Below the pieces are notes generated by a model, which saw only the letters and a program-made list of their open reading frames with translations, did not search any database and was not told where the DNA came from. From an uncultured Pseudomonadales bacterium (GTDB taxonomy: Bacteria; Patescibacteriota; Microgenomatia; UBA1400; CAYNMC01): 64,000 nt of DNA. Where the stretch lies: contig CAYPXO010000001.1 of the NCBI GenBank assembly GCA_964414895.1, forward strand, positions 26,999 through 90,998, given 5' to 3'. Below, in pieces: positions 41,732 through 63,594 of the stretch; the stretch's first letter is position 1, and each line of letters starts with the position of its first letter. The translations under genes and the position numbers were made by a program.

Positions 41732-41734
41732 CCC

Positions 41735-43271: not shown

Positions 43272-43327
43272 GAAGATTCATTAATCGTTACCCATCGAGC
43301 AACAATCAATATTTTGATATTTGATAT

Positions 43328-44332
43328 TTAATTTTTGATATTTTTAATATACCATTGCTTAACCACCTTTTCAATCCGCACCTGATAGTTAGAGCTTTCT
43401 ATATCAAACCATTTAACTCCTTTTAGTTTCTTAAAAAAAGTCAGCTGCCGACGGGCTAGACCATGCTCGTTATATTTCCATCGCTGGCTAATTTCTGGTA
43501 AAGTTTTTTTACCTTCAAAGCAGTCCTGCCAAACTCGATAGCCAGTAGCAGAAAAAGAAGGCAGATCAAAACTATGACCTTTTTGCAAAAGCGATTTTAC
43601 TTCTTTCTCTGCTCCTTGTTTGATCCTTTTATCGACTCGTTTATCAATTCTTTGATACAAAATCTTGCAATCTTTTGTCCTCAAGCCCATAATCAACAAT
43701 TTATTAATTTTTAATTTTGAATTGCAGTTTTGAATTTTGAATTTTGAATTTTGAATTTTCTTTGCTATTTCTATTGCTCGAATTAGCCTCCTGGGGTTAT
43801 TTCTATCCGACTCGTTCATCCTCTTTAATCTCTCCGGGTCTACTCTCTTTAATTTTCCCCTCAATTGCTCAATTGCCTCATTGCTCAATTGCTTGCGTAA
43901 TTCCCAATCCGGTTTTAGTCCTAGCGACTCCGCTCCTTCAAGCAGAGCCTTTATCCAAAAACCGCTTCCACCAACTACAATCGGCAACTTTTTTCTTTTC
44001 CAAATATCTTCAATAACAATTTTGGCAAACCTAACAAAATGGGCAACACTAAACTTTTGGTCCGGCTGACAAATATCAATCAACCAAATAGGAACATTGT
44101 CAAGCAACCTATAACCAATCTCGTAATTTTTAATTTTAAGTTTCAATTTGGAATTTGGAATTTGGAATTTGGAATTTTGAGGTATATCCTTTCCTGTCCC
44201 AATACTCATCTCTTTATAGACCTGCCTGGAATCGGCCGAAACAATCTCGCCAGAGAACTTTTTCGCCAGCTTCACTCCCAAAGCGGTTTTTCCCGTTGCC
44301 GTTGGTCCGCCAATAACAAGAAGTTTATTCAT
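43328..44332 (-). CDS. miaA: tRNA dimethylallyltransferase
   Basis: N-terminal P-loop LLVIGGPTATGKTALGVKLAKKF..IVSADSRQVYKEMSIGT. Two internal insertions encoded by heptanucleotide tandem repeats. Confidence 0.8.
   Translation of the reverse strand: MNKLLVIGGPTATGKTALGVKLAKKFSGEIVSADSRQVYKEMSIGTGKDIPQNSKFQIPNSKLKLKIKNYEIGYRLLDNVPIWLIDICQPDQKFSVAHFVRFAKIVIEDIWKRKKLPIVVGGSGFWIKALLEGAESLGLKPDWELRKQLSNEAIEQLRGKLKRVDPERLKRMNESDRNNPRRLIRAIEIAKKIQNSKFKIQNCNSKLKINKLLIMGLRTKDCKILYQRIDKRVDKRIKQGAEKEVKSLLQKGHSFDLPSFSATGYRVWQDCFEGKKTLPEISQRWKYNEHGLARRQLTFFKKLKGVKWFDIESSNYQVRIEKVVKQWYIKNIKN
43707..43750. repeat. heptanucleotide tandem repeat (TTTTGAA)x5 within the miaA coding sequence
   Basis: Direct reading of gttttgaattttgaattttgaattttgaatttt. 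Confidence 0.7.
44144..44178. repeat. heptanucleotide tandem repeat (AATTTGG)x4 within the miaA coding sequence
   Basis: caatttggaatttggaatttggaatttggaatttt. Confidence 0.7.
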
Positions 44333-45516
44333 CTTCTATTTATCATCTTTTCTAGAATTTGCCATCTTCGTTTTTTCTCTTTGTAAGAAACAGGGTCACC
44401 CAGCCTGTAAGCAGCCGTACCTGGGCGAGGGGAATATTTGGCAATATAGGCTTTTTCAAAACCGACTTGCCTGCAGAGTTTAACCGTATTTTCAAATTGT
44501 TTTTTAGTTTCTCCAGGAAAACCAACAATAATATCAGTGCCGATTTTAATATCCGGAATCCTCTCTCTAATTCGTTTAATTAAACCAAGATACTTTTTGG
44601 CCGTGTATTGACGGTTCATTTTTTTTAAAATCTCATCATCGCCAGATTGAGCTGGTAAATGTAAATAGCGGTCAATTTTTGGTAACCTTATCGCCTCAAT
44701 AATATCGTCAGTTAAGTCTTGAGGGTTGGAAGTAATAAAAGAAATCTTCTCCAAGCCCTTAATTTTATGCAATTCTCTCAGAAGTTTCGCAAATGGAGTA
44801 ATCTCAGTATTCTCAGCAAAATTCTGTGATCTCAGTGTTGCAGTTTTTCCATTCGAGCGGTCTCCCAACCTCTTCCCATATGAATTAACATTCTGTCCCA
44901 GCAAGGTTACATGCTTATAGTCGCGCTTAACCAATTCTTTTACCTCACAAACAATCTCCTCGAATGGACGGGAGACTTCCCGACCCCGGCCATAGGGAAC
45001 AACACAATAGGTGCAAAAATTATCACAACCTCTCATAATCGGCACCCACTTGCCCGCCGAAGCATCCCGAACGGAACGCGGCTGAATAAGCCGATGTGGA
45101 GTTTCGAGAGCGGAGGCGGGAGCATCAGACAAAGATTTAACATCCTTAATCAAATCTTGAAGTTTAACAAACTCGTCCACCCCTGGTAACATCTTTTTTA
45201 ATCTCGAAAGACTATACCGCAACATGCAACCAGTAAGAATAATTTTGGGCTTATTAACTTTTAAGTTTTTCGCTATAGCTTTTAGCTTGTAGCTTTTAGC
45301 TTGTAGCTTGGTCAAGTTTCTAACCTGACCGATCACCCGATCTTCCGCACTTTGTCTCACTGAACAAGTATTAATAACCACCACATCAGCTTCTTCAACT
45401 AACTTTGCTGGTTTGTAACCCTTCTGTTCATAACCTGCAGCAATTTTCTCCGAATCCGCCTTATTCATCTGACACCCATAAGTCTTAATATAATAGGTTC
45501 TTGATCTACTTGACAT
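44329..45516 (-). CDS. miaB: radical-SAM methylthiotransferase (MiaB-like)
   Basis: N-terminal MTTase domain YIKTYGCQMNKADSEKIA. Radical SAM CxxxCxxC (CDNFCTYC). Adjacent to miaA. Confidence 0.65.
   Translation of the reverse strand: MSSRSRTYYIKTYGCQMNKADSEKIAAGYEQKGYKPAKLVEEADVVVINTCSVRQSAEDRVIGQVRNLTKLQAKSYKLKAIAKNLKVNKPKIILTGCMLRYSLSRLKKMLPGVDEFVKLQDLIKDVKSLSDAPASALETPHRLIQPRSVRDASAGKWVPIMRGCDNFCTYCVVPYGRGREVSRPFEEIVCEVKELVKRDYKHVTLLGQNVNSYGKRLGDRSNGKTATLRSQNFAENTEITPFAKLLRELHKIKGLEKISFITSNPQDLTDDIIEAIRLPKIDRYLHLPAQSGDDEILKKMNRQYTAKKYLGLIKRIRERIPDIKIGTDIIVGFPGETKKQFENTVKLCRQVGFEKAYIAKYSPRPGTAAYRLGDPVSYKEKKRRWQILEKMINRR
45284..45320. repeat. tandem repeat (TAGCTTT/TAGCTTG heptamers, 14-mer x2.5) within the miaB coding sequence
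   Basis: tagcttttagcttgtagcttttagcttgtagcttg. Confidence 0.65.
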
Positions 45517-45892
45517 ATAAAGTTATAAGAGTTATTAAATCTGCCTGCCCGCCTAAATTTCCTGAATGAAACACGGCGGAATACGCCGAGTGAAATATCA
45601 AGAATATTTGGTGGGGCAGCCAAAGGTCTTAATAAAGTAAGTCTTATTCATAGCCTATTTTACCATCTCTTCTCTAAAAACCTGAGAGAAATGGAGAGAC
45701 TAAAAGAGAAGTAATAATAATTGCGGAAAGATATCCAGGTCAGTTTAACCTAAACAAAACAAATTATTTGCCAAAAAACATTTCTTGCTTATTACCAGCT
45801 GAAATTATTAAAACCTCTCAAATCAAAAAGAGTTAATACTTGTTATTAAATTTCTCTTATGGAATACTAAAATGAGGGCAAATTGAATATTA

Positions 45893-47062
45893 TTGAATAT
45901 TATGGAAGCAAAAAATCCAGCAACTCAAAACCAAAATCTTCCTCCAACAGGCCAACAAACACCACCTCTTACTACCTTGCAACCACAACCTGATGTACAA
46001 AAAAAAGATAACAAATTTTTTAAAATTTTTATCTATGTTTTAATTAGCGTATTTCTTGTGGGTTCTTTGGTTTTTGGTTTTTGGTTTTATCAAAAAGAGA
46101 AAGTAACTAAAGAGCCTGAACTTTCACCAGCTCCATTTACTAAACCTACTCCGAGCTCATTAACAAACTCCACAACTAAGCCAGATAGTCTGATGTCCGA
46201 ATGTAAATCTAATGAAAAAAAACATGTCAATAACTATATAGGGCTTTCTTTCTGCTACCCATCAAATCTGGAATATTATAGAACAACTAAAGAAGGAGCT
46301 TTTTCAGGTTCCATAAATGAATACTTCAAAGAGTCTGGCTCAAATAAAAAAGACCTATTCAATTTTTATTTTATAAGAAAAAAATTTGATAAAGATAAGC
46401 ATTATGAACAGGGCTGGGACATCAAACAAATTTCATCAAACCTAATTATTAATCCAATATACGCCATGACAGCTCCCAAAGATTACCTTATAAAAAATAT
46501 AAAGGAAAAGAAATTTAATGATAATACTTACTACACTTACAGATACAGCTCAGGTAAAAACAATTACTCTGTATATATTTACCCTAGAAATGATTGCTAT
46601 TATAAATTTACCTTCAATGAGGATAATGAAGCATTAATAAAAAGGGGCCTCAGTTCAGCAATATACCATGACAGTGTATATTTAAATATTTTTAAATTGG
46701 GAAAGACTACTAGCAACTCCAGGATAAATCTGGAAGAGTCATATGTTCCGCTTGGATGGGAATATGAAAATACCAACAATGAAACAAAACTATTCTATAA
46801 AGGAAAAGTAGGAGAGGCTACTGTAAAAATTATAGCAGATGGTAAAAGCGAGCTTTATAAATACTTAAAAGAAAGGTGTGATTATCGCACTGGCCGTTTC
46901 AGCTATGATACTCCTGATAATGAAATTGAAGAAATAAAAAATAAGTTTGGTTGCGAAAAAGTCAATTATTTCCGAACAGTAGTTATTAGACCTAAAACAG
47001 CTAGGCTGTTCTTTCTAAATTCACTTTTCATAACTTTTCAAGTTCATCTTCAAAGCATATGA
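45893..47062 (+). CDS. secreted or membrane-anchored hypothetical protein
   Basis: N-terminal TM helix after a Q/P/T-rich segment. The 3' end overlaps repeat copy A, so the real stop may lie earlier. Confidence 0.45.
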   Translation: MNIMEAKNPATQNQNLPPTGQQTPPLTTLQPQPDVQKKDNKFFKIFIYVLISVFLVGSLVFGFWFYQKEKVTKEPELSPAPFTKPTPSSLTNSTTKPDSLMSECKSNEKKHVNNYIGLSFCYPSNLEYYRTTKEGAFSGSINEYFKESGSNKKDLFNFYFIRKKFDKDKHYEQGWDIKQISSNLIINPIYAMTAPKDYLIKNIKEKKFNDNTYYTYRYSSGKNNYSVYIYPRNDCYYKFTFNEDNEALIKRGLSSAIYHDSVYLNIFKLGKTTSNSRINLEESYVPLGWEYENTNNETKLFYKGKVGEATVKIIADGKSELYKYLKERCDYRTGRFSYDTPDNEIEEIKNKFGCEKVNYFRTVVIRPKTARLFFLNSLFITFQVHLQSI

Positions 47063-47082
47063 TCGTGAGTCAATCTGGTGAA
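47021..47082. repeat. ~62-bp repeat copy A (..TTCAAGTTCATCTTCAAAGCATATGATCGTGAGTCAATCTGGTGA)
   Basis: 58 of 62 positions identical to copy B at 49299-49360. Confidence 0.7.
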
Positions 47083-47103
47083 GTAAAAACTGCTAAATTA
47101 GGA

Positions 47104-47526
47104 TTACTTTTCTAAAATTTTTAAAAACTCTCTTGGAGTAACAATTTTAATATTTTTAAAACTTTTTAACTTCAAAAGATGCTTATCACCAGAAATAATC
47201 CATTTTGCTTTACCTTGCAAAGCACAAGCTAAAAACTTATCATCAGCTGGATCCTCAACAATAATTTCTAATTTCTGTTTTGGCTCAATTATTGCGCAAT
47301 CCTTTTCTAAAGACTTTTTTACTCTTTTTATCTTTTCTTCTGATAACTGATATCTTCTTTTGATTTTTGGCCGCTTTAAAACATCCAAGATCTCATCAAT
47401 AACCTTCTGCGAAACTACCAAGTTGATCTTTTTTGTTTGCCAGAGTTTGAGAATTTTTCTTGGGGCTCCTTTGGGAGAAATTAGTCCGCTAACAACTACA
47501 TTTGTATCCAAAACCACCTTGCTCAT
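47104..47526 (-). CDS. PIN-domain toxin (VapC-like)
   Basis: VLDTNVVV PIN N-terminal motif with a conserved acidic residue pattern; overlaps the upstream antitoxin gene. Confidence 0.7.
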   Translation of the reverse strand: MSKVVLDTNVVVSGLISPKGAPRKILKLWQTKKINLVVSQKVIDEILDVLKRPKIKRRYQLSEEKIKRVKKSLEKDCAIIEPKQKLEIIVEDPADDKFLACALQGKAKWIISGDKHLLKLKSFKNIKIVTPREFLKILEK

Positions 47527-47804
47527 TTACCTCTCACTTTATCAACTGCTTCAGCCACATCGTTCTTAACTTGAGAAAAAGGAACATTTTTGTTTTCCTC
47601 GGCAATCGCAAAAAGTTCTCGAAAACGTTCTTCTCTTGCCCTCTCTGCCTGTCTACTTAATTCCAGCAAATCCTCTAGGTTAATCAAAACTGCCATTGGC
47701 CGACCCATTTTTTGTAGTAAAAACTGCTGACCTTGATAATATACCTGGCTTAAAAGCTCAGAAAAATTATTTCTTGCCTGACTGACGCTTATTGTTCTGG
47801 TCAT
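47523..47804 (-). CDS. Phd/YefM-family antitoxin
   Basis: TISVSQARNNFSELL is the typical Phd/YefM N-terminus; 4-nt overlap with the PIN gene. Confidence 0.65.
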   Translation of the reverse strand: MTRTISVSQARNNFSELLSQVYYQGQQFLLQKMGRPMAVLINLEDLLELSRQAERAREERFRELFAIAEENKNVPFSQVKNDVAEAVDKVRGK

Positions 47805-47868
47805 ATTTTATCTCCTTTCTGTCTTTAGAATAGCAATAATTGTACAATTTGTCAATTTTGTATTTTTT

Positions 47869-48303
47869 TCAGCCTGTAGGCTTTTCATTAACTAAAAAAG
47901 GATTAAAATTGATCTTTAATAAATTTCTAATCGGTACAAAGAGTAGTCTGGGTAAATTTCTCCACTCAAACCAATCCCATCCGATACATTTATCAGGCTC
48001 TTTAATTTTTACTTTACCAGATTTATAGTCTGCTATCACAAAACAAGTAATATAATGCTTACCTTCTTTTTTGAAAATATCATTAGTATAAGGACCTTGT
48101 TTAAGGTTTTTTATCTTTATTCCTGCTTCTTCTAAAACCTCTCTTTTGGCACAACTAAAAACATCTCCATTAAAATCTAGGTGCCCGCCCGGAAAATTCC
48201 AATCACCCTCTCCATGAGAACCCTTTCTCTTGCCCATCAAGACTTTATTATCTTTTATAACAATTACGCCAATGCCTATTCTTGGGTATTTGTTGTTTTT
48301 CAT
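47869..48303 (-). CDS. NUDIX hydrolase
   Basis: Nudix box GGHLDFNGDVFSCAKREVLEEAGI. Confidence 0.7.
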   Translation of the reverse strand: MKNNKYPRIGIGVIVIKDNKVLMGKRKGSHGEGDWNFPGGHLDFNGDVFSCAKREVLEEAGIKIKNLKQGPYTNDIFKKEGKHYITCFVIADYKSGKVKIKEPDKCIGWDWFEWRNLPRLLFVPIRNLLKINFNPFLVNEKPTG

Positions 48304-48324
48304 TGTTTTATCTCTTGCCAGAAA

Positions 48325-49212
48325 TCATTTTTTGATATTGATTACCATCGTCGCTCCAATAAAAGCCAAAATAGAACCAGCGATAAAACCCAAAGTCAAT
48401 CTTTCTCCCAGCATTAAAGCAGACCAGATAAAAGCAGAAACAGGCTGAAGATAAAAAACCATAGAAACAATAATTGGGTTGGCTTTTTTAATTGCCAGCT
48501 GGTAGACAATATAATAGCCGGCTGTGCCAAGTATCCCCACATAAACTAAGCTTGCCCAGCTGGCGAAAGAAACATTTTTAAGCAAACCCAAATTGCCTTC
48601 AGTTTCTGACAAAGCTAAGAAACTTTGAACAATGAGAGTTGTGGCAATAAAAATAGTTGTCAAGGCCAGCGGAGAAAAGTATTTTTGTAGTTTTTTGGAA
48701 AAAACTGAATACAAAGAATAAGAAAAAACAGCAATAAATACTAAAAGGTTGCCTAAAAGATCGCCGCTAAAAACAAAGCTTTTCCCCAACACAGGCAGAA
48801 GAACAATTAACAAAACTCCAATAAAACCAATAATAACTCCTAAAATTTTTTTTAAACTCATTTTTGTTTTGAGAATAAAATATGAAGTGATAGCAACAAT
48901 AATTGGCACTGCAGCATATAACATTTGGGAAATTGTAGCGGTAGTCTTTCTAACACCTAGGGCAAAAAAAGTAACATTTGAAGTAGCCAATAAAGAAATC
49001 AGAACAGCCAGTTTTATTTTTTTTAAGTTTAACTTTTTTTCTTTGGATAGAAATAAAGGGCCTAAAACTAAGCCGGCCAAAATAAACCTTAAAAATATAA
49101 AGGTAAAAGGAGTTATCTGTTTTAGGGCAATTTTAGAAAATGGAGGAACCCCACCACCGATAAAAGCTGCTAATAAAACTAAAACTATTGATGTAAAAAT
49201 ATCATTTCTCAT
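48325..49212 (-). CDS. EamA/DMT-family transporter
   Basis: Ten TM helices in two EamA-like halves. Confidence 0.6.
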   Translation of the reverse strand: MRNDIFTSIVLVLLAAFIGGGVPPFSKIALKQITPFTFIFLRFILAGLVLGPLFLSKEKKLNLKKIKLAVLISLLATSNVTFFALGVRKTTATISQMLYAAVPIIVAITSYFILKTKMSLKKILGVIIGFIGVLLIVLLPVLGKSFVFSGDLLGNLLVFIAVFSYSLYSVFSKKLQKYFSPLALTTIFIATTLIVQSFLALSETEGNLGLLKNVSFASWASLVYVGILGTAGYYIVYQLAIKKANPIIVSMVFYLQPVSAFIWSALMLGERLTLGFIAGSILAFIGATMVINIKK

Positions 49213-49298
49213 CTTCTCTTATATTTCATCAGTCATAACATTACGCCTGATTTTATTTTATCCGAGAAATTTAATAAAGACTAGCTATTTTTTCGAAT

Positions 49299-49360
49299 TG
49301 ACTTTTCACAATTCTTCAAGTTCATCTTCAAAGCATATGATCGTGAGTCAATCTGGTGAG
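49299..49360. repeat. ~62-bp repeat copy B
   Basis: See copy A. A degenerate third copy (GATCGTGGGTCAATC) lies at 50153-50172. Confidence 0.7.
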
Positions 49361-49384
49361 CTAAAGAGAGCAAATTTGTAAAAT

Positions 49385-50032
49385 TTATTGAAGTTTTAAG
49401 ATTCTAAGCTTTATTTTTTTCTTCTCAAGTTTAAACTGAAAAATCACTGGAAAGTCAAAATTATTTTTAATATAAAGATTTTTTTCTTTGCTTTCCTTAC
49501 TTCCTTCTTCATAAGAAATTAAAGTCCCGTATTCTCTTGGCACACCGGGAATAGGGGAGAAGTCGTGATTTCTTTTGGCAATTACTTCCAATCCTGCCTC
49601 ACTAGCCGTCCAGTTCATCAAAGAAGCCAAGTGGCAAACTCCATTACCATGAATTCCATAGGCTTTTTTAAAACCCTGTTCGGCGGAAAATTGGCTGCCA
49701 ACAGTCATAACCAGCCCTTTTTCATACTCTGGCAAAATATTTTTATGAAAAGCAAAAACCGCCCCGGAAGGCAAGACAAAAGAAAAATCATCACTAATCT
49801 TGCCAGCAAAATAGTAAAGGTTCAAAAGAATGTTGTCAGTAAAAATCTCGTTTATTTCTTTATTTTCATCTCTGTTTGTCAAATCAAGGCTGTTTTGAGC
49901 CAAAAATCCTTTCTCTCTATCGGCAACTTGGTTTATAAGCTCGCTTTGAGGAATTGGTGTTAATAAAACCTTCTTCTGAAAAGGGAGACCTGGTAGTAGA
50001 AAAGAAAGCAAAGAAACAACAACTGTTTTCAT
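49385..50032 (-). CDS. VanW-like protein
   Basis: Signal peptide; GIHGNGVCHLASLM resembles the VanW G-G-G-V-C core. Confidence 0.4.
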   Translation of the reverse strand: MKTVVVSLLSFLLPGLPFQKKVLLTPIPQSELINQVADREKGFLAQNSLDLTNRDENKEINEIFTDNILLNLYYFAGKISDDFSFVLPSGAVFAFHKNILPEYEKGLVMTVGSQFSAEQGFKKAYGIHGNGVCHLASLMNWTASEAGLEVIAKRNHDFSPIPGVPREYGTLISYEEGSKESKEKNLYIKNNFDFPVIFQFKLEKKKIKLRILKLQ

Positions 50033-50183
50033 TTTAAAAATTAAAAACCTCTGTTTTTAACCAGAGGCAGGCTTTTTATTCTTCTCCTATTTTCTCAAAT
50101 CATTCCCTAATTTTCAATCCCTGCTTGCTTTTATATCTACTCTAATAAGCCTACGATCGTGGGTCAATCAGAGTAACTTAAAT

Positions 50184-51662
50184 TCACTCGGGAGTAAAAC
50201 GGTAAACACCAAAATAACTTTCTTTCTCTGGTTTGTAGAATCGTGCCTTTTCTATAAGACAATCTTCTAGGCCTCCTTTATGCTCACTGCGGCTGACAAA
50301 ATAAACCGGCTTTTTAAAAGAAAATTCTTCTATCTTTCCTTTTAATAGCTGTTTATCCAAATAAACTACTTTGATTCTTGGATTTTCAAAATAATAAGCA
50401 AAAAGAGCATTCTCTGGATTGCCAGCATCCAAACGAACGCCCAGGACGATAGGTTGTTTCTCTGCTTTTTCTTCCAAAAATTGTCTCACTTTGTCCAAGC
50501 CATAACCGGCAGTGTTCCCGGTAACATACTCCTTTTTTTGAGAAAAGGCAGGGATAAAGTTGTTCAACAAGCTAAAGTAGGCAAGAGGCTTGAAAATCAA
50601 TAAAAAAGTCACATATAAAGGAAAAAATAGTGCAAACAGTCCAAAAAAGCCAAGAAATTTTTGCTTTATAAAAAGAAAGGCGACTGCCAAAGCAGCTAAA
50701 ATTGAAGTCAGTGGTAAAAGAGGCATTATATAACGAGGATTAAGATTCCTAGCAGTTAATATTGTTATTGCCAAACTCCCAAAAAACCAAAATAAAAACA
50801 GATAATATCTTTCCTTAATTGCCTTAATTAAGCCAAGAATTATCAATAAAAAAACTGCTGGTGTTAGCTGCCAAAAACTTATTTTTAAAAAAGCTGAAAT
50901 ATTGCCCCACCATTTATCAAAAGGAAAAAAAAGCAATTCTTTAATGGTCAAATTAAAACGATTGCTCATTTTAATAATATTAAGAAAGTCAGGCTGGATA
51001 ATAAGAGGCAAAATAAAAAAGAAAGTAAAAAATAAAATCAAAGCCAGTGCCCAAAAATAATTTTGTTTTTCTTTAATTTTTCTCTCTTTCAGAAGAAAAA
51101 AACCCAAACTAACAACTGTTAATAAAAAAAAGATAAATGTGTTTGATTTAATAAAAAGACCAATTCCTAAAATACTACCAATAAAAAAAGAGATAACTAA
51201 ACTTCTTCTTTTAAAATAAAGGCTTAAAAGATAAAAACTCCAAATATTAACAGAACAAACAGCACTCTCCATTAAGGCCTGTCGATCAAAAAAGACAAAA
51301 ATTGGCACGATAATATAAATAAGCGGTGCAATTAGTAAAAAAGGCCAAGGTAAAAAAAGAGCACTTAATAAATATATCCCTAATACCCCTAATCCTCCTA
51401 AGGCCACTGACACCAATCTCCCGGCAAGCAAAGGATCAGGAATTATTTTATTTGTAATTCCAAAAACCCACATCAAAAAAGGCTGCTTACCGTCATAAAG
51501 GGAATAAAAAGCAAAACCAGGAATATTAATCATCCGCTGCCCCCAATCAAGGTAAATCGCTTCGTCATTAAAAATCGGCAGTAAGGTAAGGTTAACAACT
51601 CGTACAAATAAAAAAAGAAAAAAGACTAAAAGAAGCAAAAGAAACTTTTTATTGCTTATCAT
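50184..51662 (-). CDS. PMT/ArnT-family (GT39/GT83-like) membrane glycosyltransferase
   Basis: More than ten TM helices; N-terminal LPIFNDEAIYLDWG matches the D-E loop of PMT/ArnT enzymes. Confidence 0.55.
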   Translation of the reverse strand: MISNKKFLLLLLVFFLFLFVRVVNLTLLPIFNDEAIYLDWGQRMINIPGFAFYSLYDGKQPFLMWVFGITNKIIPDPLLAGRLVSVALGGLGVLGIYLLSALFLPWPFLLIAPLIYIIVPIFVFFDRQALMESAVCSVNIWSFYLLSLYFKRRSLVISFFIGSILGIGLFIKSNTFIFFLLTVVSLGFFLLKERKIKEKQNYFWALALILFFTFFFILPLIIQPDFLNIIKMSNRFNLTIKELLFFPFDKWWGNISAFLKISFWQLTPAVFLLIILGLIKAIKERYYLFLFWFFGSLAITILTARNLNPRYIMPLLPLTSILAALAVAFLFIKQKFLGFFGLFALFFPLYVTFLLIFKPLAYFSLLNNFIPAFSQKKEYVTGNTAGYGLDKVRQFLEEKAEKQPIVLGVRLDAGNPENALFAYYFENPRIKVVYLDKQLLKGKIEEFSFKKPVYFVSRSEHKGGLEDCLIEKARFYKPEKESYFGVYRFTPE

Positions 51663-51809
51663 CAGTTTCTACGAGGAAAAAGCATCTTTATACCACTTGT
51701 TAAAAAAGCAATCACAAAGCGGAAAAGATCTCCTGCTTTTCTGCCTAAAAACTGCAAAAAATCTTCCCCAAAATAGCGCAAATGACGCTGTTCTTCTTCT
51801 CCCAGCATT

Positions 51810-52028: not shown

Positions 52029-52046
52029 ATCATAAAAAAGGAGAAA

Positions 52047-54955: not shown

Positions 54956-55039
54956 AACACTCCTTATAACAACAATTTTCGAAGAAACGTAAAAAAAAAT
55001 TATTACTCAATGTGGCGATCGCAGCACGAAATAATAATT

Positions 55040-55828: not shown

Positions 55829-55974
55829 CGTCTCTTATACTTCGAGCGGGTCTCGAGTTGTGTCGAGAGAGAAGTCGAGAAGCTTGCCTCAGATTTATCG
55901 AAGAGTTCTCGACTCACTGCGTTCGCTCGAACAATAAAAAACTTACCTCACTCACTCGTCAATTTGTTCCTATT

Positions 55975-56775
55975 TTATCCTCCATAAGTTGAATAAACTT
56001 TCAAACCTCTTCGCCACAAACTCCTGGTTAAGAACAAAAAAATTACAATCCAAAAAAACTGTATTGAAAAAGTCAGTAAAATCTCTCTAACTCCAAGATT
56101 TCCCAAAAAAATCTGTGTAGGAACAAAAACTTCAAAACGAAAAGGCAGAAACAAAGAAATCTTATAAAGACTTTCTGGTAAAAACTGCAGAGGAAAAAGC
56201 GTCCCTCCAAAAAGTAAAAGCAAAAAATCTGTCAGATTATTCAACCAACCAATCTCATTAAACCAGAAAGCAGACAGGCCAATGATAAGCTTAAACAAAA
56301 AAAATAAAATAAAGCTAAAGCTTATAAAAATAAAAAATAAGGATATATCTCTCCAAGAAAAATTTAAACTACCCAAAGAAACAGGGTAAAAAAGCAAAAA
56401 AAGGCCAATTACAGGAAATAGGAAAATTAAACGTAAAATTTTATAGGCTAGCTCATATATAAATCTTAAAAACAAAACTCTGGCTGGTCTCATTAAGTAA
56501 AAAGAGCTCAATTTACCAGTAGAAATATCAACTTGCAAAGCATGATCAGGATGGGTAAAAACAACGGCACGAATAAACATCACCAAAAGATAATAAACAA
56601 ACATCGAAGAGATGCTATAACCAGCAATCTTCTCTTGCCTAGCAAAAGCCGCCTGCCAGAAAAGAAGCATAATAGTCGGCGGAACAACATCCCAAAAAAA
56701 CCAAATAACACTTCTTGCCCTATAGGCAAAAACTAGCTGGAGTATGGTTTTAAAAAAGGCCCAATACTTTCTCAC
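55975..56775 (-). CDS. ABC-2 family transporter permease (paralog)
   Basis: See 52823..53665. Confidence 0.5.
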   Translation of the reverse strand: MRKYWAFFKTILQLVFAYRARSVIWFFWDVVPPTIMLLFWQAAFARQEKIAGYSISSMFVYYLLVMFIRAVVFTHPDHALQVDISTGKLSSFYLMRPARVLFLRFIYELAYKILRLIFLFPVIGLFLLFYPVSLGSLNFSWRDISLFFIFISFSFILFFLFKLIIGLSAFWFNEIGWLNNLTDFLLLLFGGTLFPLQFLPESLYKISLFLPFRFEVFVPTQIFLGNLGVREILLTFSIQFFWIVIFLFLTRSLWRRGLKVYSTYGG

Positions 56776-57051
56776 TTAGCGAACTTTCTTTTTTAAATTC
56801 TTAGAAACTATAAAACGGACCGCCCGGTGGGCTTTGTGGACTACTGGTGTTGGGTCATCAACGCTTTTCCTTCCTTTTTTGTCGGCCACCTTTTTAACAA
56901 CAAAAGTTCCGAAACCGGAAAGAACGACTTTCTCTCCTTTCCTTAAAGCTTTTCTAATTTCCTCAAGCATCACCTCAACTGCTTCTTTAGAAGCCTTTTT
57001 GGTTAAGTGAGCCTTCTTGGCTACAATCTCAATCAAATCTGATTTTTTCAC
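56776..57051 (-). CDS. hup: HU/IHF-family DNA-binding protein
   Basis: GFGTF beta-arm motif and typical length; MKKSDLIEIVA N-terminus. Confidence 0.8.
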   Translation of the reverse strand: MKKSDLIEIVAKKAHLTKKASKEAVEVMLEEIRKALRKGEKVVLSGFGTFVVKKVADKKGRKSVDDPTPVVHKAHRAVRFIVSKNLKKKVR

Positions 57052-57064
57052 TCTAGTTTCACCT

Positions 57065-57109
57065 CCTTCCTTGCCCGCCTGAATTTCTGGCAGTCCGCCT
57101 CTGGCGGAT
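57065..57109 (-). promoter_or_regulatory. second copy of the conserved 45-nt palindromic leader element
   Basis: CCTTCCTTGCCCGCCTGAATTTCTGGCAGTCCGCCTCTGGCGGAT differs from the 41735 copy at one position. Confidence 0.45.
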
Positions 57110-57205
57110 CAAATTTCTCAGCGTTACTCACCTCTCATTCGTTTCCAAATACCACTTCTGTAACCCTGAAGCACAAAACTTCACTGAGATACTGAAAAAT
57201 TAATT

Positions 57206-58726
57206 TCAGGCTACCTGCGTTTCTCTTAACTCTCTTATTACCGTTACTTTAACCTGGCCAGGAACAGAAACTTGATCTTTAACTTTATCTCTTATGTCAA
57301 TCGCCAGCTTAGCTACTGCCGGATCATTTTTTTCTTCGGGATCAACAATCACCCTCAATTCCCTGCCCGCCTGGACAGCATAAGCTTGTCTCACTCCGGA
57401 AAAACTCTTGGCGATTTCTTCCAGTTTTCTTAATCGAGCCGCATACTCTTCATAGTCTTCATAACGAGCTCCCGGCCGACTGCCAGAAATAGCATCGGCA
57501 ATATAAACTAAAACTGCCTCAACACAACTAAAATCCTCATCTCCATGATGTTGAGCAACACAGTCAATAACTTTCCGAGGCATATTGTATTTTTTCAAAA
57601 AGTTAACTCCTATTTGAACATGGCTACCTTCTTCATTAGTAATAACTTTACCAATATCGTGAAGCAGACAACCCAGCCGAACGACATTAATATCGGCCTT
57701 TACTTCATAAGCTAAAGCAACACCTATCTTCGTCTCCTCCAAGGTATGAGAAATCATATTCTGTCCATAAGAAGACCGATAGTGAAAACGTCCTAAAGTA
57801 TCCATTATTTCCCTGGGTAAATTATAAACTTTAACCCTGTGGCAAAGCTCTTCTCCGGATTGATGAATAATTCTATTTATATCTTTCTTTGTTTTTTTGA
57901 CAATTTCTTCGATTCTTACCGGCTGGATTCGACCATCACCAATAAGCTTTTCCAAGGCAACTCTGGCAATTTCTCTCCGCACCGAGTCAAAACTAGAAAG
58001 ACGAATTACTCCTTCCTCGTCCAGATCAACATCAACTCCAGTGGCTTTTTCAAAAGCACGGATATTGCGCCCCTCCCGACCAATAATCCTTCCCTTCATC
58101 TCCTCATCTCTAAGTTTAACTGTCGAAACCGTATATTCAGGAACATAATCAGTTGCTCCTCTTTGCATCGCATCAACCAAAATTTCCTGGGCTTTTTGTT
58201 CAGCAATCTGTTTTGCTTTTTCTTCCTCTTCTCTGACTTGAAGAGCAATTTCCTTTTCCAGCTTCTTCTCCCAGGCCTGAAGGAGAAGTTTTTTTGCTTT
58301 TTCCTTGCTTAAAGAAGCAATTCTCTCCAGCTTGCTTAGTTCTTTTTCTTTTATTTCTTCCAACTCTCGCCTTTTGTGAAAAAGCCGCTTTTTATCTTTT
58401 TCTAAATCTTCTTCTCTTTGTTTAATTCTTGCTATCTTCTGTTGAATTTCTGCCTGCTTTGACTGAATTTTCTGGTCAAGGTTACGCAATTCTCTTTGAC
58501 TCCGATCTAACTGCTCACTGGCCGTTTTCTTAATTTGGAAAGCTTCCTCTTTAGCCTCTAGAATTATTTCTTTAGCTCTCGTTTTCGCTTCTACTAAAAA
58601 CCTGCCATCTCTAGTGCCAACTTTAGTTTTCTTAACAGAGTCTTTGTCTAACTTTTTAGCTTTTTTGAGGGGAGACTTTTTCCCCTTTGCGGCAAAAAGA
58701 GTCCCTAAACGATTAAAAAATGACAT
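57206..58726 (-). CDS. rny: ribonuclease Y
   Basis: Coiled-coil N-terminus, KH domain (IIGREGRNIRAFEKATGVDV) and HD domain (LLHDIGK...HHGDE). Confidence 0.85.
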   Translation of the reverse strand: MSFFNRLGTLFAAKGKKSPLKKAKKLDKDSVKKTKVGTRDGRFLVEAKTRAKEIILEAKEEAFQIKKTASEQLDRSQRELRNLDQKIQSKQAEIQQKIARIKQREEDLEKDKKRLFHKRRELEEIKEKELSKLERIASLSKEKAKKLLLQAWEKKLEKEIALQVREEEEKAKQIAEQKAQEILVDAMQRGATDYVPEYTVSTVKLRDEEMKGRIIGREGRNIRAFEKATGVDVDLDEEGVIRLSSFDSVRREIARVALEKLIGDGRIQPVRIEEIVKKTKKDINRIIHQSGEELCHRVKVYNLPREIMDTLGRFHYRSSYGQNMISHTLEETKIGVALAYEVKADINVVRLGCLLHDIGKVITNEEGSHVQIGVNFLKKYNMPRKVIDCVAQHHGDEDFSCVEAVLVYIADAISGSRPGARYEDYEEYAARLRKLEEIAKSFSGVRQAYAVQAGRELRVIVDPEEKNDPAVAKLAIDIRDKVKDQVSVPGQVKVTVIRELRETQVA

Positions 58727-58854
58727 ATTAACCTCCTAAAAACAATAAACAACAAAAAACTAATAAGGGAGTCGAGGCAATGAGTAGAAATAATCGCTAA
58801 AAAATAAATTCATTGCAAATCCTTTTTTTGCTGATTATCGCTTTGACTGATATT

Positions 58855-59358
58855 CTATCTTTTTTTGAGAAAATCGTCAACCATTCTTAAAGCAAGACTG
58901 GAAGAAAAGCCCCTCCTTAAAAGGTGTTTAAATAATCGATCTTTCAGGGCAACCCCATCAAGCTCTTTGTATAAAACGATTTTTTTTTCTAATACTCTTT
59001 TTACTGCTTGAGCCAACTGGCAACTCTTGATTTTAGCTAATTTTTCTTCTATCAAATGCTTATCAACTCCTTTTTGACAGAGTTCCTTTTTTAAAGCTAT
59101 TTTCCCCTTGGGATTAAACTCCATCCGCTGATCAATCCACCAATCAACAAATTCTTCATCATTAACTAGGTTCTCTTTTTCAAGTTTTCCAACGACATCA
59201 TTAACTAAATTCTGAGTTTTATTGCAAAACTTGTTTATTTTTTTAACAAGATAGCTTTGAATTTCTTTTCTGCTTCGAGGTCTAAAACCAAGAAAGCGAA
59301 GTGAATAACTGTAAAGCTTTTCTAAAATTTCCTTTTGTGAAAAATCATCTTCTGTCAC
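58855..59358 (-). CDS. recX: RecX regulatory protein
   Basis: 167-aa helical-repeat protein immediately downstream of recA. Confidence 0.6.
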   Translation of the reverse strand: MTEDDFSQKEILEKLYSYSLRFLGFRPRSRKEIQSYLVKKINKFCNKTQNLVNDVVGKLEKENLVNDEEFVDWWIDQRMEFNPKGKIALKKELCQKGVDKHLIEEKLAKIKSCQLAQAVKRVLEKKIVLYKELDGVALKDRLFKHLLRRGFSSSLALRMVDDFLKKR

Positions 59359-59364
59359 TGTTCT

Positions 59365-60420
59365 TTATTTTTCTCTTTTCCCTTTTAAATCTTCCTCTTT
59401 AACCATTTTCCAAATTTTTTCCTCTATTCTAGCGGCTAGTTTTTTATCTTCATCTATAGCTACCTTAGCCGCCTCCCGGCCTTGACCTAAAAGTTTTCCT
59501 TCAAATTTATAAAAACTGCCGGATTTCTCAATGACATTCAGTTCTACCCCAACATCCAAAAGCCCGCCAGACCGAGAAACGCCTCCAATATTCATAATGT
59601 CAAACTCAGCTACTCTAAAAGGCGGGGCTACTTTATTTTTTACTACTCTTACTCGGTGACGACTGCCAATAATTTTATCTCCATCATTAATCTTGCCTAT
59701 TTTGCGAGTATCCAGTCGCACCGATGAATAAAATTTCAGAGCCATTCCCCCGGCAGTTGTTTCCGGATTGCCAAACATTACTCCAATCTTCATTCTAATC
59801 TGATTGGTAAAAATCATTGCTGTTTTCGATCGGCTGATTGCTCCGGACAACTTTCTCATCGCCTGGCTCATTAACCGAGCTTGAACACCGACTGAAGCAT
59901 CACCCATCTGGCCTTCAATTTCTGCCTTGGGCACCAAGGCAGCTACTGAATCAACACACAAAACATCAATTGCTCCCGAGCGGATCAGAGTCTCCGCTAT
60001 TTCTAAAGCCTGCTCACCGGTATCCGGCTGAGAAATAATCAAATCGTCCAAGTTAATTCCTATTGATTCGCCACGAGCGGGATCTAAAGCATGTTCGGCA
60101 TCGATAAAAGCTACCTTACCGCCTTTCTTTTGAGCCTCGGCCATTACATGAAGACAGAGCGTTGTTTTTCCAGAAGCCTCCGGCCCATAAATCTCAGTAA
60201 TTCTACCCCGAGGTAAACCACCAACTCCTAAGGCCAAGTCTAAAGCAATTGCTCCTGTTGGAATGACATCAACCTGTAAGTTTTTACTACCATCACCAAA
60301 GCGCATAATCGAACCCTTGCCATAATGCTTTTCAATCTGGGCCATTGCTACTTCAATTGCCTCTAGCTTTTGGTCTTTTACTTTAGAGTTAGAAGAAGAA
60401 TTTTTCTTCGGTCTTCCCAT
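59365..60420 (-). CDS. recA: recombinase RecA
   Basis: [16 protein letters not shown] Walker A and canonical RecA core motifs. Confidence 0.95.
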
Positions 60421-60479
60421 AAAAATTCCTTTCTCATTTCATTCCTATCATAAATAATGTTAAAATACAAGAGCAATTG

Positions 60480-60554
60480 CGGGGTATGGTCTAGTGGCTA
60501 TGATAGGCGCATGGGGTGCGTCTGACCCCAGTTCGATTCTGGGTACCCCGACCA
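60480..60554 (+). tRNA. tRNA-Pro (anticodon GGG)
   Basis: Acceptor stem CGGGGTA/TACCCCG with C1-G72 (characteristic of bacterial tRNA-Pro). Anticodon stem-loop GGCGC-AUGGGGU-GCGUC. T-arm CCCAG-TTCGATT-CTGGG. Discriminator A; CCA encoded. Confidence 0.75.
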
Positions 60555-60622
60555 TCCGACTCTCCCGACGTAGCGTCGGGATCGCTCAGGGCAAGCAAAA
60601 GGGAATAAAAAGGAGGATAAAG

Positions 60623-61162
60623 ATGGCAAATAAAAAGGCTAGTTCTCTAGCAACTCTTCTCATAATCATCATTATTTTAAACCTTTTGATTCTTAGTACT
60701 TTTCTTTTCTGGTTTTATCAAGAAAAGATAAAAAAACCTCAAACCTCTCCAAGCCCATCCCCAAGTCCCGTAATCACACCATCAATAAAGCCAACCCCTC
60801 AACCAACTTCTGCCCCTTCTATAATGCCTTCGCCAACACCTTTTCCCACTCCTCCACTTCAAACAAAAAGTGATTTAGAACTAATAAAAGAAGCTTTTGC
60901 GGAAAAATATGACAAACCCCTTGCTGATGTTGAAGTAAATATTGATAAACAAACTGGTCCTTATGCCAGTGGTGGGGTGAGATTTGCGGGAGAAATGGGT
61001 GGCGGTATGTGGTTGGCGTACAAAGATTGTGAAGAATGGGTCATTGTCCACGATGGCCATGGGACGATTTCTTGCGAAGCAATTGAGCCCTATGACTTTC
61101 CCGTTGACATCGTCCCCGAATGCTTTAGGGAAAGCGATGGAACAGTAGTCGAAAGAAGCTAA
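60623..61162 (+). CDS. membrane-anchored hypothetical protein with Pro/Ser/Thr-rich linker
   Basis: Trimmed to the ATG at 60623 (SD GGAGGATAAAG). TM helix, then a PSPSPSP linker, then a Cys-containing globular domain. Confidence 0.45.
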   Translation: MANKKASSLATLLIIIIILNLLILSTFLFWFYQEKIKKPQTSPSPSPSPVITPSIKPTPQPTSAPSIMPSPTPFPTPPLQTKSDLELIKEAFAEKYDKPLADVEVNIDKQTGPYASGGVRFAGEMGGGMWLAYKDCEEWVIVHDGHGTISCEAIEPYDFPVDIVPECFRESDGTVVERS

Positions 61163-61524
61163 ATTTCCTAGGTGTTCAGAGATTAACACCTTCCAGGTGA
61201 TGTTTTCATAACGGCTGTTAAGGCCAAGTGAGGGGCATTTTTGACATCTTTTGATATATTTTTATATATTAAACCAGTTTTTTCATTTTTCGATTTCAAA
61301 ATAATCTTTAAATTTCTAACAAAAAAAGTCTACCTCTCTGGCTAAAGTCCGTATAATATATTAGCTACTAGACTTTTTCTTTTCTTATGTTAGAATAAAT
61401 AAGTTTTAAATCTTAAATAGGTCTGTGGTCCTTTGGCTCCTTTTTTCAGGTCTCCAAAGAAGTTTCCACGAAAAAGATATTCCAGTTTTTAAAGATATCC
61501 CATTTAAAGGAGGTGAGTAAATAA

Positions 61525-61818
61525 ATGAATACCAAACTTTATGTTGGCAATTTAGACTATGCTGTAACTGACGATCAACTAAACGACCTTTTTTCTCAAA
61601 TCGGTAAAGTAGTCAGCGCTACAGTCATTACCGACAAATATTCTGGCCGCTCAAAAGGTTTCGGCTTCGTAGAAATATCTGATGAGAAAGAAGCTGAAAA
61701 AGCAATCAAAGAGCTTAACGAAAAAGAATTCCAAGGCAGAAAAATAATAGTTAATGAAGCCAGGCCAAGAAGACCACGTTCTGGTGGCTTCCGCCCAACA
61801 GGCAATAAAGGTTTCTAA
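61525..61818 (+). CDS. RRM-type RNA-binding protein (Gly/Arg-rich C-terminus)
   Basis: RNP-2 LYVGNL and RNP-1 KGFGFVEI. SD AAAGGAGGTGAG. Confidence 0.8.
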   Translation: MNTKLYVGNLDYAVTDDQLNDLFSQIGKVVSATVITDKYSGRSKGFGFVEISDEKEAEKAIKELNEKEFQGRKIIVNEARPRRPRSGGFRPTGNKGF

Positions 61819-61896
61819 AATTAACTTTAGTCTCCTGGTTAAATTTCGTCTAGTACATAATACACATAAAGTGTAAACTAATGAAAGAGGGTTTTT

Positions 61897-62088
61897 ATGG
61901 ACTGTAAAATAGACGAAAATCTAAAAAATTGCACCTGTACTTATTCGGGTTGTCCCCGAAAAGGAAAGTGTTGTCTTTGTATTGCCTATCACCGCAAAAG
62001 GAATGAGTTGCCCGGTTGTCTCTTTCCTTCAAAAGCAGAAAAAACCTATGATCGTTCAATAACTGCTTTTATAAAAGCATATTCATAA
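61897..62088 (+). CDS. small Cys-rich protein (63 aa, 7 Cys)
   Basis: CTCTYSGCP..CCLC..PGC; lies immediately upstream of the B12-binding radical SAM gene. Confidence 0.4.
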   Translation: MDCKIDENLKNCTCTYSGCPRKGKCCLCIAYHRKRNELPGCLFPSKAEKTYDRSITAFIKAYS

Positions 62089-62094
62089 AGAACA

Positions 62095-63594
62095 ATGAAA
62101 GTCGTTATTGGCTATCCCCCTTTAGACTCAAAAAAAGGTATTCCCCTTTTAAGCCAAAATCGGCAGTTTCAATGGTTTAAAGTCCCTACTTTCATTTACC
62201 CGATTATCCCTGCTTATGCGGCTACCCTAATTAACCAAGCCAACCACCAGGTAGTCTGGCTTGACGGCATAGCGGGAAAGTGGACTTTTGAAAAATGGCT
62301 TATCGAACTTAAAAAATTAAAGCCAGACTTATTGATGATGGAAGCCAAAACTCCGGTAATTAAACACCACTGGAAGATTATCAACAAATTAAAACGACTA
62401 TTCACTAATCACTTATCACTAATCACTGTATTAGTTGGCGATCATGTCACCGCTCTTCCCGAAGAGTCTTTCAAAAACTCTCAAGTTGATTATATCTTAA
62501 CTGGCGGCGATTATGATTTTTTGCTTCTCAACTTAGTTAACCACTTAACTAAAGGAGAAAAGCTCAAACCAGGAATATTGTACAAAAAGAAAATTCGAAA
62601 TTCGAAATTCGAAATTCGAAACACAGGTAAATTCAAACTAAACCATGACTTAGATAAACTCCCAGTCATAGATAGAGAGCTGACAAAGTGGCAACTTTAT
62701 GCATATAAGAATGGTAATTATAAGAAAACTCCAGGTACTTATATTATGGCTGCCCGCGATTGTTGGTGGCATCGTTGCTCTTTTTGTTCTTGGACAAGCT
62801 TGTATCCTAACTATAGAGTAAGAAAAGTAGAAAATGTCTTAAAGGAAATCGGCCAGTTAATCAAAAAGTATAAAATAAGAGAAATTATGGATGATTCCGG
62901 TACCTTTCCTGCCGGAAACTGGCTCAGAAATTTTTGTCAAGGCATGATTAACAGAGGTTATCATAAAAAAATTTATTTTGACTGCAATTTGCGCTTTGGG
63001 GCACTAACAAAAAAAGATTATAAACTGATGGCTCAGGCCGGCTTCCGTCTGCTTCTTTATGGATTGGAGTCAGCCAACCAAAAAACAATTGATAAGCTAA
63101 ACAAAGGCATAAAAATAAACGAAGTTGAGAAAGAATTAAGAATTGCTAAAGAAGCTAATAAAGAAGTTGTCGGCCATCTTGAGCCCCATCTTACTTGTAT
63201 GGTTGGTTATCCCTGGGAGAAAGAAAAAGATGCCAAAAAAACGGTTCAATTAACTAAAGAGCTCTTTAAAAAGGGTTTGATCGCCTCGCTCCAGGCAAGT
63301 CTCATTATTCCTTATCCAGGAACAAAACTGTTCACTGATTGTCAAAAAAAAAGCCTTTTAAAAACTAAAAACTGGAGACGTTTCGATATGAAGGAACCGG
63401 TTATAAAAAGCCCTATCAGCAACAAAAAACTGCTAAGTCTCACTCGCAACCTTTACCAATCGGCACTCAGTCCCCAATTTGTCCTACAAAAAGTCACCTC
63501 TATTCGCTCTTGGGAAGATATTAGATTCTTATCCAAAATTGGTATAAAATTCTTAGGCCATTTATGGAATTTTAAATACCCTCGTCATTCCTGA
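62095..63594 (+). CDS. B12-binding-domain radical SAM protein
   Basis: N-terminal Rossmann-like B12-binding region; radical SAM cluster motif CWWHRCSFC (Cx4Cx2C variant). Contains the (AATTCGA)x4 heptamer repeat. Confidence 0.55.
   Translation: MKVVIGYPPLDSKKGIPLLSQNRQFQWFKVPTFIYPIIPAYAATLINQANHQVVWLDGIAGKWTFEKWLIELKKLKPDLLMMEAKTPVIKHHWKIINKLKRLFTNHLSLITVLVGDHVTALPEESFKNSQVDYILTGGDYDFLLLNLVNHLTKGEKLKPGILYKKKIRNSKFEIRNTGKFKLNHDLDKLPVIDRELTKWQLYAYKNGNYKKTPGTYIMAARDCWWHRCSFCSWTSLYPNYRVRKVENVLKEIGQLIKKYKIREIMDDSGTFPAGNWLRNFCQGMINRGYHKKIYFDCNLRFGALTKKDYKLMAQAGFRLLLYGLESANQKTIDKLNKGIKINEVEKELRIAKEANKEVVGHLEPHLTCMVGYPWEKEKDAKKTVQLTKELFKKGLIASLQASLIIPYPGTKLFTDCQKKSLLKTKNWRRFDMKEPVIKSPISNKKLLSLTRNLYQSALSPQFVLQKVTSIRSWEDIRFLSKIGIKFLGHLWNFKYPRHS
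62591..62620. repeat. heptanucleotide tandem repeat (AATTCGA)x4 within the rSAM coding sequence
   Basis: aaattcgaaattcgaaattcgaaattcgaaa. Confidence 0.7.

Follow-up and report, generated by a model that had tools for sequence, protein, structure and literature searches.

Coding heptanucleotide arrays in conserved loops of housekeeping enzymes of a Microgenomates-group lineage

A stretch of 64,000 nucleotides from the genome of an uncultured Microgenomates-group bacterium (contig CAYPXO010000001.1, positions 26,999 to 90,998; the window) carries short tandem arrays of A/T-rich heptanucleotides inside intact genes, among them miaA, a miaB-like gene and the gene of a radical S-adenosylmethionine (radical-SAM) enzyme. 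Comparison with related genomes demonstrates that such coding arrays are a trait of this lineage of the candidate phyla radiation (CPR, or Patescibacteria) and not a local oddity. One would expect essential-type genes to be free of tandem repeats whose unit length three does not divide. This lineage as a whole tolerates them, and at any time a perfect array is present in about one third of MiaA and one fifth of radical-SAM orthologues. The arrays are probably slippage-generated coding microsatellites, tolerated in protein loops and incidentally giving reversible null alleles. On balance we favour the view that they act as hot spots of mutation from which new loop sequence arises, and are not an evolved switch of tRNA modification; adaptive phase variation of miaA and miaB is not supported.

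The arrays were located with Tandem Repeats Finder and by direct inspection of the raw sequence. A first-pass annotation of the window had reported four 7-mer arrays within genes; all four were recovered at those places, and the open reading frames (ORFs) that hold them are intact and have Pfam assignments. The tRNA dimethylallyltransferase gene miaA (43328-44332, minus strand, 334 amino acids, intact) contains three internal arrays and one over the stop codon. Site 1 (44145-44177, minus strand) is made of 4.7 perfect copies of AATTTGG (coding unit AAATTCC), encodes NSKFQIPNSK and is followed by degenerate units. Site 2 (43706-43759, minus strand) is a degenerate 7.9-copy array of AATTTTG/TTTTGAA (coding unit AAAATTC, peptide QNSKFKIQN) with a perfect run of 4.6 copies at 43728-43759 and degenerate units on the 3' side. 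On the coding strand the perfect units thus lie 5' of the degenerate ones in both arrays. Together with these 3' degenerate units and some flanking sequence the two arrays (43681-43759 and 44100-44178) are 77% identical over 79 nucleotides, a likeness that could mean either that similar arrays decayed in parallel or that they exchanged sequence. The third internal site (43860-43893, minus strand) is built from an 8-nucleotide unit, CTCAATTG, in 4.2 copies. The array at the end of the gene (43313-43343, minus strand, TTTGATA in 4.4 copies, coding TATCAAA) covers the last codons and the stop.

The adjacent methylthiotransferase gene (44329-45516, minus strand, 395 amino acids, intact; Pfam UPF0004 and Radical_SAM) holds an array of TAGCTTT/TAGCTTG at 45249-45310 (minus strand), in which the coding units CAAGCTA and AAAGCTA alternate, so that a 34-nucleotide run (45276-45309) is perfect at period 14; the encoded peptide is KLQAKSYKLKA. 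Two arrays are present in the gene of the radical-SAM enzyme (62095-63594, plus strand, 499 amino acids, intact; Pfam Radical_SAM; 100% identical to homologue P0165). Site A (62397-62427, plus strand) consists of 4.4 copies of ACTAATC/ACTTATC and encodes FTNHLSLIT, and site B (62591-62621, plus strand) of 4.4 perfect copies of AAATTCG and encodes IRNSKFEIRN. One further array, GGTTTTT/TTTGGTT in 3.3 to 3.9 copies (46061-46088, plus strand), specifies the peptide LVFGFWFY in a predicted membrane helix of a 389-residue ORF (45893-47062, plus strand) that has an N-terminal hydrophobic helix and matches no Pfam family. This membrane-helix array, radical-SAM site A, miaA site 3 and the stop-codon array were missing from the first-pass annotation.

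The array-encoded peptides lie mostly in loops of conserved enzymes. MiaA shows the N-terminal P-loop motif GPTATGKT, matches the Pfam family IPPT (PF01715, E 2e-55, residues 37-302) and aligns with solved MiaA structures (E 3e-45) except for a gap at residues 50-75. Relative to these structures site 1 is an insertion of about 22 residues. In the predicted model of MiaA, which has a predicted local distance difference test score (pLDDT) of 87, residues 51-70 at site 1 reach 62-78 and residues 191-210 at site 2 reach 64-67, falling below 50 at 198-203, and both form low-confidence coil. These data bear out the earlier suggestion that the arrays encode extra Lys/Asn/Ser/Phe-rich loops. Site 3 differs in that it lies in a helical part of the protein. 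The methylthiotransferase retains the radical-SAM CxxxCxxC motif as CDNFCTYC and aligns with solved MiaB over residues 6-388 (E 2e-68). Pfam gave no match to a TRAM domain, and the terminal residue 395 aligns with residue 380 of the 457-residue MiaB; because the C-terminal TRAM domain is not present, the protein is best named MiaB-like. Site B of the radical-SAM enzyme lengthens by five residues a turn that reads GKKIK in most orthologues. Radical_SAM alone passes in the window protein, while the B12-binding domain PF02310 is recorded for most of its homologues (58-68% identical). In residue numbers the internal arrays correspond to about 52-62 and 192-202 of MiaA, 70-81 of the MiaB-like protein, and 102-111 and 167-176 of the radical-SAM enzyme. 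A-rich hydrophilic units are thus found in low-pLDDT loops, and the single T-rich array of the window in a membrane helix.

As seven is not divisible by three, the ribosome reads each array in all three frames, and, as had been pointed out before, the gain or loss of one unit would shift the reading frame of the gene. Reading in three frames also exposes stop codons that individual units carry. In the miaB array the variant AAAGCTA gives TAA in one frame and is never placed in that frame, and at radical-SAM site A an A-to-T variant sits exactly where an in-frame TAA would fall. Units that contain a stop are retained only if a base differs in the copy that would have it in frame. This argues that the array is a DNA-level event which is patched by selection.

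The arrays are restricted to a narrow range of periods and sizes. In window 37001-64000, the 27-kilobase (kb) host part that also served as chance control region, perfect arrays of at least three copies number four at period 7 and zero at each other period from 5 to 12; 50 shuffles of this region gave a mean of 0.00 period-7 arrays. In 229 kb comprising the window and relatives, 24 perfect runs have period 7, compared with 3, 4 and 3 runs at periods 5, 6 and 8 and none at periods 9-12, while only two period-7 runs are present in metagenome loci L089-L156, which total 755 kb and are for the most part more distant. Of the 24 runs, 14 fall within 31-34 nucleotides and none is longer than 34 (at most 4.9 units), and the encoded peptides measure 9-12 residues, never more. 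At least 25 different heptamer units occur, related by one or two substitutions. Among 71 period-7 arrays in Patescibacteria loci, 50 (about 70%) are crossed by an ORF of 100 or more amino acids and 20 lie outside long ORFs, as predicted by a mutational process. At the density of the window, about 7 arrays per 27 kb, a genome would hold on the order of 100 or more, and this looks more like the imprint of a mutational process than like a selected set of genes.

To describe the spread of the arrays we used a census base of a few hundred kilobases and two protein families, in which a homologue was counted when it contained a peptide that exactly matches what a perfect heptamer array of 27 or more nucleotides would encode. 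Exact three-frame readouts are present in 57 of 164 MiaA homologues and in 29 of 158 radical-SAM homologues; a 20-fold set of shuffled proteins yielded one hit. MiaA of the window has no entry in the public protein collection that includes its radical-SAM protein; its best matches are from Patescibacteria and Microgenomates genomes, with identities of at most 66%. Alignment of the MiaA orthologues places NSKFQIP, NSKLKTQ, NPKSKIQ, NSKFEIR and KFSIFNF at the same two positions, each being the readout of a different heptamer. These positions are conserved across about 100 species, and at site 1 the insert has a few similar lengths in many species, mostly 33 residues between the flanking anchor motifs. 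Orthologues such as P0015, P0041 and P0104 have no insert at all. Comparison with orthologues, which the first-pass annotation had proposed as a check, thus reveals inserts at the same sites with other units, next to orthologues that are free of them.

This is further supported by the DNA of orthologous miaA genes, where perfect arrays occupy the same sites, with AATTCGC (4.6 copies) and AAAAGTC (4.9 copies) in locus L001, AAAACTC in L161 and AAAATGC (4.9 copies) in L167. At site 1 of L166 and L169 the unit is the AAATTCC of the window, in 4.4-4.7 copies, and these species are 57-61% identical. The 8-nucleotide arrays of site 3 were found in four species, with units that are all different (CAATTGAG, AATTGTTC, AGAAATTA); in relatives they lie at 10446-10484 of L166 (AATTGTTC in 4.9 copies), 5260-5297 of L167 and 10439-10472 of L168. 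The miaB loop of relatives holds AAAATCA in 4.7 copies (L169), an 8-nucleotide array together with a GC-rich insert (L167) or a degenerate array (L163), and at this loop of L168 the insert is absent.

Short palindromic GC-rich sequences are inserted into heptamer arrays in several relatives (L061 7000-7040, L161 520-620, L088 10560-10610). The clearest one is a 21-nucleotide in-frame sequence, TCTGCCTGCCGGGCAGGCAGG, at about 6500-6520 of L174 (radical-SAM site B), which is absent in the near relative L175, and many homologues contain matching peptides (PPAGGQ, LPAGQAG, SAGKQ). One possibility is that the palindromic insert represents a tiny mobile element with the arrays as its target. The motif CTGCCTGCC is found upstream of miaB in the window as well (45541), and none of the window arrays is interrupted by a GC-rich palindromic insert. 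In L169 (9258-9926) and in L170-L173, all from one relative, miaA is immediately preceded by a gene for a 222-residue Y1 (IS200/IS605-type) transposase; the ORFs of the window that were scanned include none.

We then compared closely related genomes for changes in copy number. Five contigs of one relative, obtained from different samples and 99.3-99.9% identical, have the same copy number in all four miaA/miaB arrays, and indels between these near-identical strains consist solely of single bases in A or T homopolymers. At 17389 of L169, in comparison with L170 and L172, such a difference (8 versus 7 A) changes a called hypothetical protein from 470 to 464 residues, which may be homopolymer slippage or sequencing error. 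Array length is likewise constant within clusters of MiaA proteins that share at least 90% identity. Steps of seven residues in the P0081 MiaA cluster were considered as three-unit copy changes and rejected, as they correspond to differences in start call and C-terminus. Thus, the five strains give no sign of contingency-locus switching rates in miaA/miaB.

In the radical-SAM gene, site B is fully remodelled in units and lengths among proteins 87-95% identical. In a 45-kb contig (L177) this gene is split into two ORFs and the array is (AAATACG)3; with one more AAATACG unit the reading frame is whole again and its product 100% identical to the full-length, 497-residue P0274. At the other radical-SAM array, removal of one AAACTGG unit produces, residue for residue, the 403-residue P0318 that is encoded on a 118-kb contig. 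The full-length form of that species is present on 11 contigs. The P0318 and L177 alleles are two independent frameshift nulls, each lacking seven nucleotides in an otherwise identical gene. Taken together with the remodelling of site B, they indicate that the arrays mutate far faster than single bases. A further split radical-SAM gene, P0304/P0307, was discarded as an example since the break is not at the array. Among loci that were not chosen for truncation, none of the 50 arrays inside long ORFs carries a frameshift signature.

The earlier proposal of slipped-strand phase variation thus has mixed support, with single-unit slippage real in the clade and the miaA/miaB arrays invariant in the five strains. 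Uniform copy number and repeats shared with distant relatives had been named as marks of stable low-complexity inserts, and for miaA/miaB both are partly found, in the unchanged strains and in the AAATTCC array at the same MiaA site of species 57-61% identical.

From these data we infer slippage as the generator of the arrays and selection as their filter, together with a lack of adaptive use. Replication slippage in a 7-nucleotide register would expand short codon runs, A-rich in surface loops and T-rich in the membrane helix, to about 31-34 nucleotides (4.4-4.9 units). Read in three frames, such an array would add a peptide with a period of seven residues, such as NSKFKIQ or NSKFQIP, to a flexible loop. 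Selection would retain those arrays whose total length preserves the frame, which contain no in-frame stops and whose peptides suit their context. As the arrays would remain prone to slippage, a one-unit change could create a reversible frameshift null allele; such alleles would be purged in miaA and miaB and might reach consensus frequency in a dispensable gene. Finally, arrays would decay by point mutation and be replaced by new arrays at the same permissive sites. The A-rich bias of the coding strand fits better with tolerance of hydrophilic peptides in loops. Avoidance of stop codons was considered as its cause and rejected, as T-rich units are the commoner ones among AT-rich stop-free units.

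Several observations weigh against slippage as the source of tolerated coding microsatellites. The narrow size of 31-34 nucleotides is unexpected under simple stepwise slippage, and a model in which a short seed is extended by exactly three units (21 nucleotides) was rejected because radical-SAM site B is longer by five and not seven residues than most orthologues. The account gives no reason for a register of 7 nucleotides, or 8 at one MiaA site, in place of 3, 6 or 9, which would be harmless in genes. Both seven-nucleotide null alleles come from one gene of one related species. In addition, AAATTCC, AAAATTC, AATTTTC and AAAACTC recur at non-homologous sites in different species, which may point to a preference for certain sequences or to transfer from one array to another. 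In the site 1 array 12 of 13 codons are identical between the window and L166, compared with 45% elsewhere; rapid turnover would lead one to expect less conservation, but the contrast is weakened by codon bias.

The arrays could instead be adaptive contingency loci, in which one-unit slippage toggles genes and diversifies tRNA modification (miaA, miaB) and envelope chemistry (radical-SAM enzyme). The unit length not divisible by three would be suitable for this purpose, and many arrays are perfectly homogeneous and uninterrupted. The two independent OFF alleles of the radical-SAM gene on 45-kb and 118-kb contigs, against the ON form on 11 contigs, are what a switch would produce, and in relatives this gene lies among glycosyltransferase and polysaccharide genes. 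A coding heptanucleotide switch has a precedent in NeuO, a capsule-modifying enzyme of the CUS-3 prophage of E. coli K1, where the unit AAGACTC is read in three frames into a disordered peptide repeat, RLKTQDS (PMC3046976). Slipped-strand changes of one unit shift the frame of neuO, and full-length protein is made only at frame-preserving copy numbers; the array starts two nucleotides after the start codon, comprises 2-93 copies and switches at high frequency (PMC3046976). The genes of the window share with NeuO the coding heptanucleotide array that is read in three frames into a 7-residue repeat. They differ in that their arrays are internal, have no more than about five units and mostly belong to housekeeping enzymes, with miaA/miaB arrays that are invariant in five strains. 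At 34 nucleotides or less, the perfect runs also fall short of the many-unit tracts that high switching rates require. The position in conserved loops in the middle of genes rather than at 5' ends, the sharing of one array by species 57-61% identical, the density of about 7 arrays per 27 kb with its order of 100 or more per genome, and the 20 of 71 arrays outside long ORFs are also difficult to reconcile with a set of switches. We therefore consider adaptive contingency loci unlikely.

More doubtful is an active insertional process, by which a lineage-specific enzyme or a mini mobile element would seed or homogenise heptamer blocks of about 21-33 nucleotides at A-rich sites. It would account for the stereotyped array size, for preferred units that recur at unrelated sites and for the 77% likeness of the two MiaA arrays with their flanks over 79 nucleotides. 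The GC-rich palindromic mini-inserts in arrays of relatives, such as TCTGCCTGCCGGGCAGGCAGG in L174 and not in L175, and the Y1 transposase gene adjoining miaA in L169-L173 would also be in line with such a process. However, the units number at least 25 and lie one or two substitutions apart, the arrays have neither conserved ends nor target duplications, and no candidate enzyme is encoded near the arrays of the window. Instead, arrays pass gradually into degenerate units of their own type, as predicted by growth and decay in situ, and the allele changes that were seen are plain one-unit deletions. The first-pass annotation had alternatively called the arrays relics of a repeat-spreading process. 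A clade-wide 7-nucleotide expansion agrees with the spreading, while no mobile element that carries arrays was found, and many arrays are perfect and hence current, not relics. In a quite unlikely combination of these ideas, a process specific to the lineage, perhaps linked to the 21-nucleotide GC-rich palindromic inserts and Y1 transposases of relatives or to an unusual replication enzyme, would seed and homogenise the arrays and create a stochastic switch network of about 100 or more that are prone to frameshifts. If true, such a network, including miaA and miaB, would diversify translation fidelity and envelope chemistry in clonal, host-dependent populations.

A selected function, be it of the peptide as a Lys-rich RNA-binding loop or of the repeat, in DNA or RNA, as a site to which a protein binds, with the 7-nucleotide period as a means to it, is very improbable: MiaA binds tRNA, so that extra basic loops could matter, and insert positions kept across about 100 species, site 1 lengths clustering at 33 residues between anchors and the 12 of 13 array codons shared with L166 would agree with it, but some orthologues are insert-free (P0015, P0041, P0104), units and peptides vary freely between species up to the hydrophobic KFSIFNFQFSI, the loops are predicted to be disordered, and similar arrays are not confined to such loops, being found between genes, within a membrane helix and in proteins of no relation.

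Arrays of this period have parallels in other bacteria. According to the summaries of Mrazek and co-workers (2007) in PMC4692102 and PMC4679880, heptanucleotides are the commonest class of long simple sequence repeats (SSRs) in bacteria, and polymerase slippage has been proposed as their origin. Examples cited there are the tandem heptanucleotides of the cyanobacterium Calothrix, GGGAATC of Xanthomonas and TAACTGA of Beggiatoaceae (PMC4692102, PMC4679880). As far as these accounts describe them, the bacterial SSRs resemble the present arrays in the dominance of period 7, in the proposed slippage in a 7-nucleotide register, and in lengths and sequences that differ between related genomes. In the same accounts they are mainly intergenic, represented by one or a few units per genome, often G-rich and sometimes long. 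In contrast, about 70% of the Microgenomates arrays lie in long ORFs, and they comprise at least 25 A/T-rich units, are capped near 34 nucleotides and occupy conserved loops of conserved proteins. Perfect, fast-evolving tandem repeats that arise independently in ORFs and add disordered segments are outlined for Borg elements in PMC9879509. On that outline, Borg repeats and the present arrays are alike in lying within ORFs and adding disordered segments, and differ in that Borgs are archaeal extrachromosomal elements. The in-ORF units of Borgs are reportedly multiples of three, so that the frame is safe and no three-frame reading occurs.

Rickettsia palindromic elements are very small palindromic insertions in coding regions, and Elhai et al. 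(2008) are said to have described small dispersed repeats of 21-27 nucleotides in coding regions of cyanobacteria. Both are relevant only to the GC-rich mini-inserts of the relatives, such as the 21-nucleotide insert of L174. Our literature search found no description of heptanucleotide or heptamer repeats in Patescibacteria or Microgenomates. While the 7-nucleotide bias itself was already known, arrays that are pervasive, size-capped and read in three frames, and that sit in conserved loops of housekeeping enzymes throughout a lineage of the CPR, appear to be new. They offer a natural system for asking why bacteria favour a 7-nucleotide slippage register, and a visible route to new loop sequence in proteins. 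Very small genomes also gain from them an inbuilt supply of reversible null alleles, as exemplified by two independent one-unit deletions in one gene. For annotation, this means that a gene which seems split or absent in a genome of this kind may be an allele altered by one-unit slippage and not an error.

The window consists of two parts. A prophage (47% G+C) extends from position 1 to about 36.8 kb, with all genes on one strand and a strong skew of A over T (about +0.3); the remainder is host DNA with 33-38% G+C (about 35%). As the prophage is confined to this segment, the arrays are indeed in host genes, as the first-pass annotation had it, and Tandem Repeats Finder detected zero 7-nucleotide arrays in the prophage part. 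To our knowledge, prophages of CPR bacteria have seldom been described. This one encodes a large terminase (6748-8310), a portal-like protein (12362-14233), a major head protein (16931-18115), an 862-residue protein with an amidase/endolysin domain (21122-23710), a tail fibre (25942-27273) and a 1907-residue protein (28616-34339), and its integrase gene lies at 36837-37925 on the minus strand. The integrase adjoins a Mg-chelatase/ComM-like gene (38058-39011, minus strand) of 317 amino acids that ends within the Mg_chelatase domain, and the syntenic gene of the relative L163 encodes 508 amino acids. This gene appears to be the integration site of the prophage, with its other half expected beyond the start of the window.

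The host part contains recA, recX, RNase Y, HU and ABC transporter genes, miaB, miaA and an AI-2E transporter gene in an order that agrees with Microgenomates-group relatives. A full-length class A RNase P RNA is present at 41936-42290 on the plus strand (92.3 bits, E 1e-28); it was missed by the default search because its score is just below the Rfam gathering score of 100. Sigma-70-type promoter-like sites in the array region show no excess over shuffles. A 52-nucleotide repeat, with copies 96% identical at 41727-41778 and 57058-57109, directly precedes the start codons of a mechanosensitive-channel gene and of the HU gene (minus strand). It combines a GC hairpin (TCCGCC-AGA-GGCGGA) with the motif AAATTTAGGCGGGCAAGG followed by a ribosome-binding site, and a partial copy is found upstream of miaB (about 45541-45565). 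The repeat may be a shared leader or regulatory element. Between the array-bearing ORF at 45893-47062 and a NUDIX hydrolase gene lies a pair of minus-strand genes for a PIN-domain toxin (47104-47526) and a Phd/YefM antitoxin (47523-47804). An 82-nucleotide direct repeat, 87% identical between copies about 2.3 kb apart (47018-47099 and 49296-49377), covers with its first copy the 3' end of the same ORF and runs beyond the stop codon.

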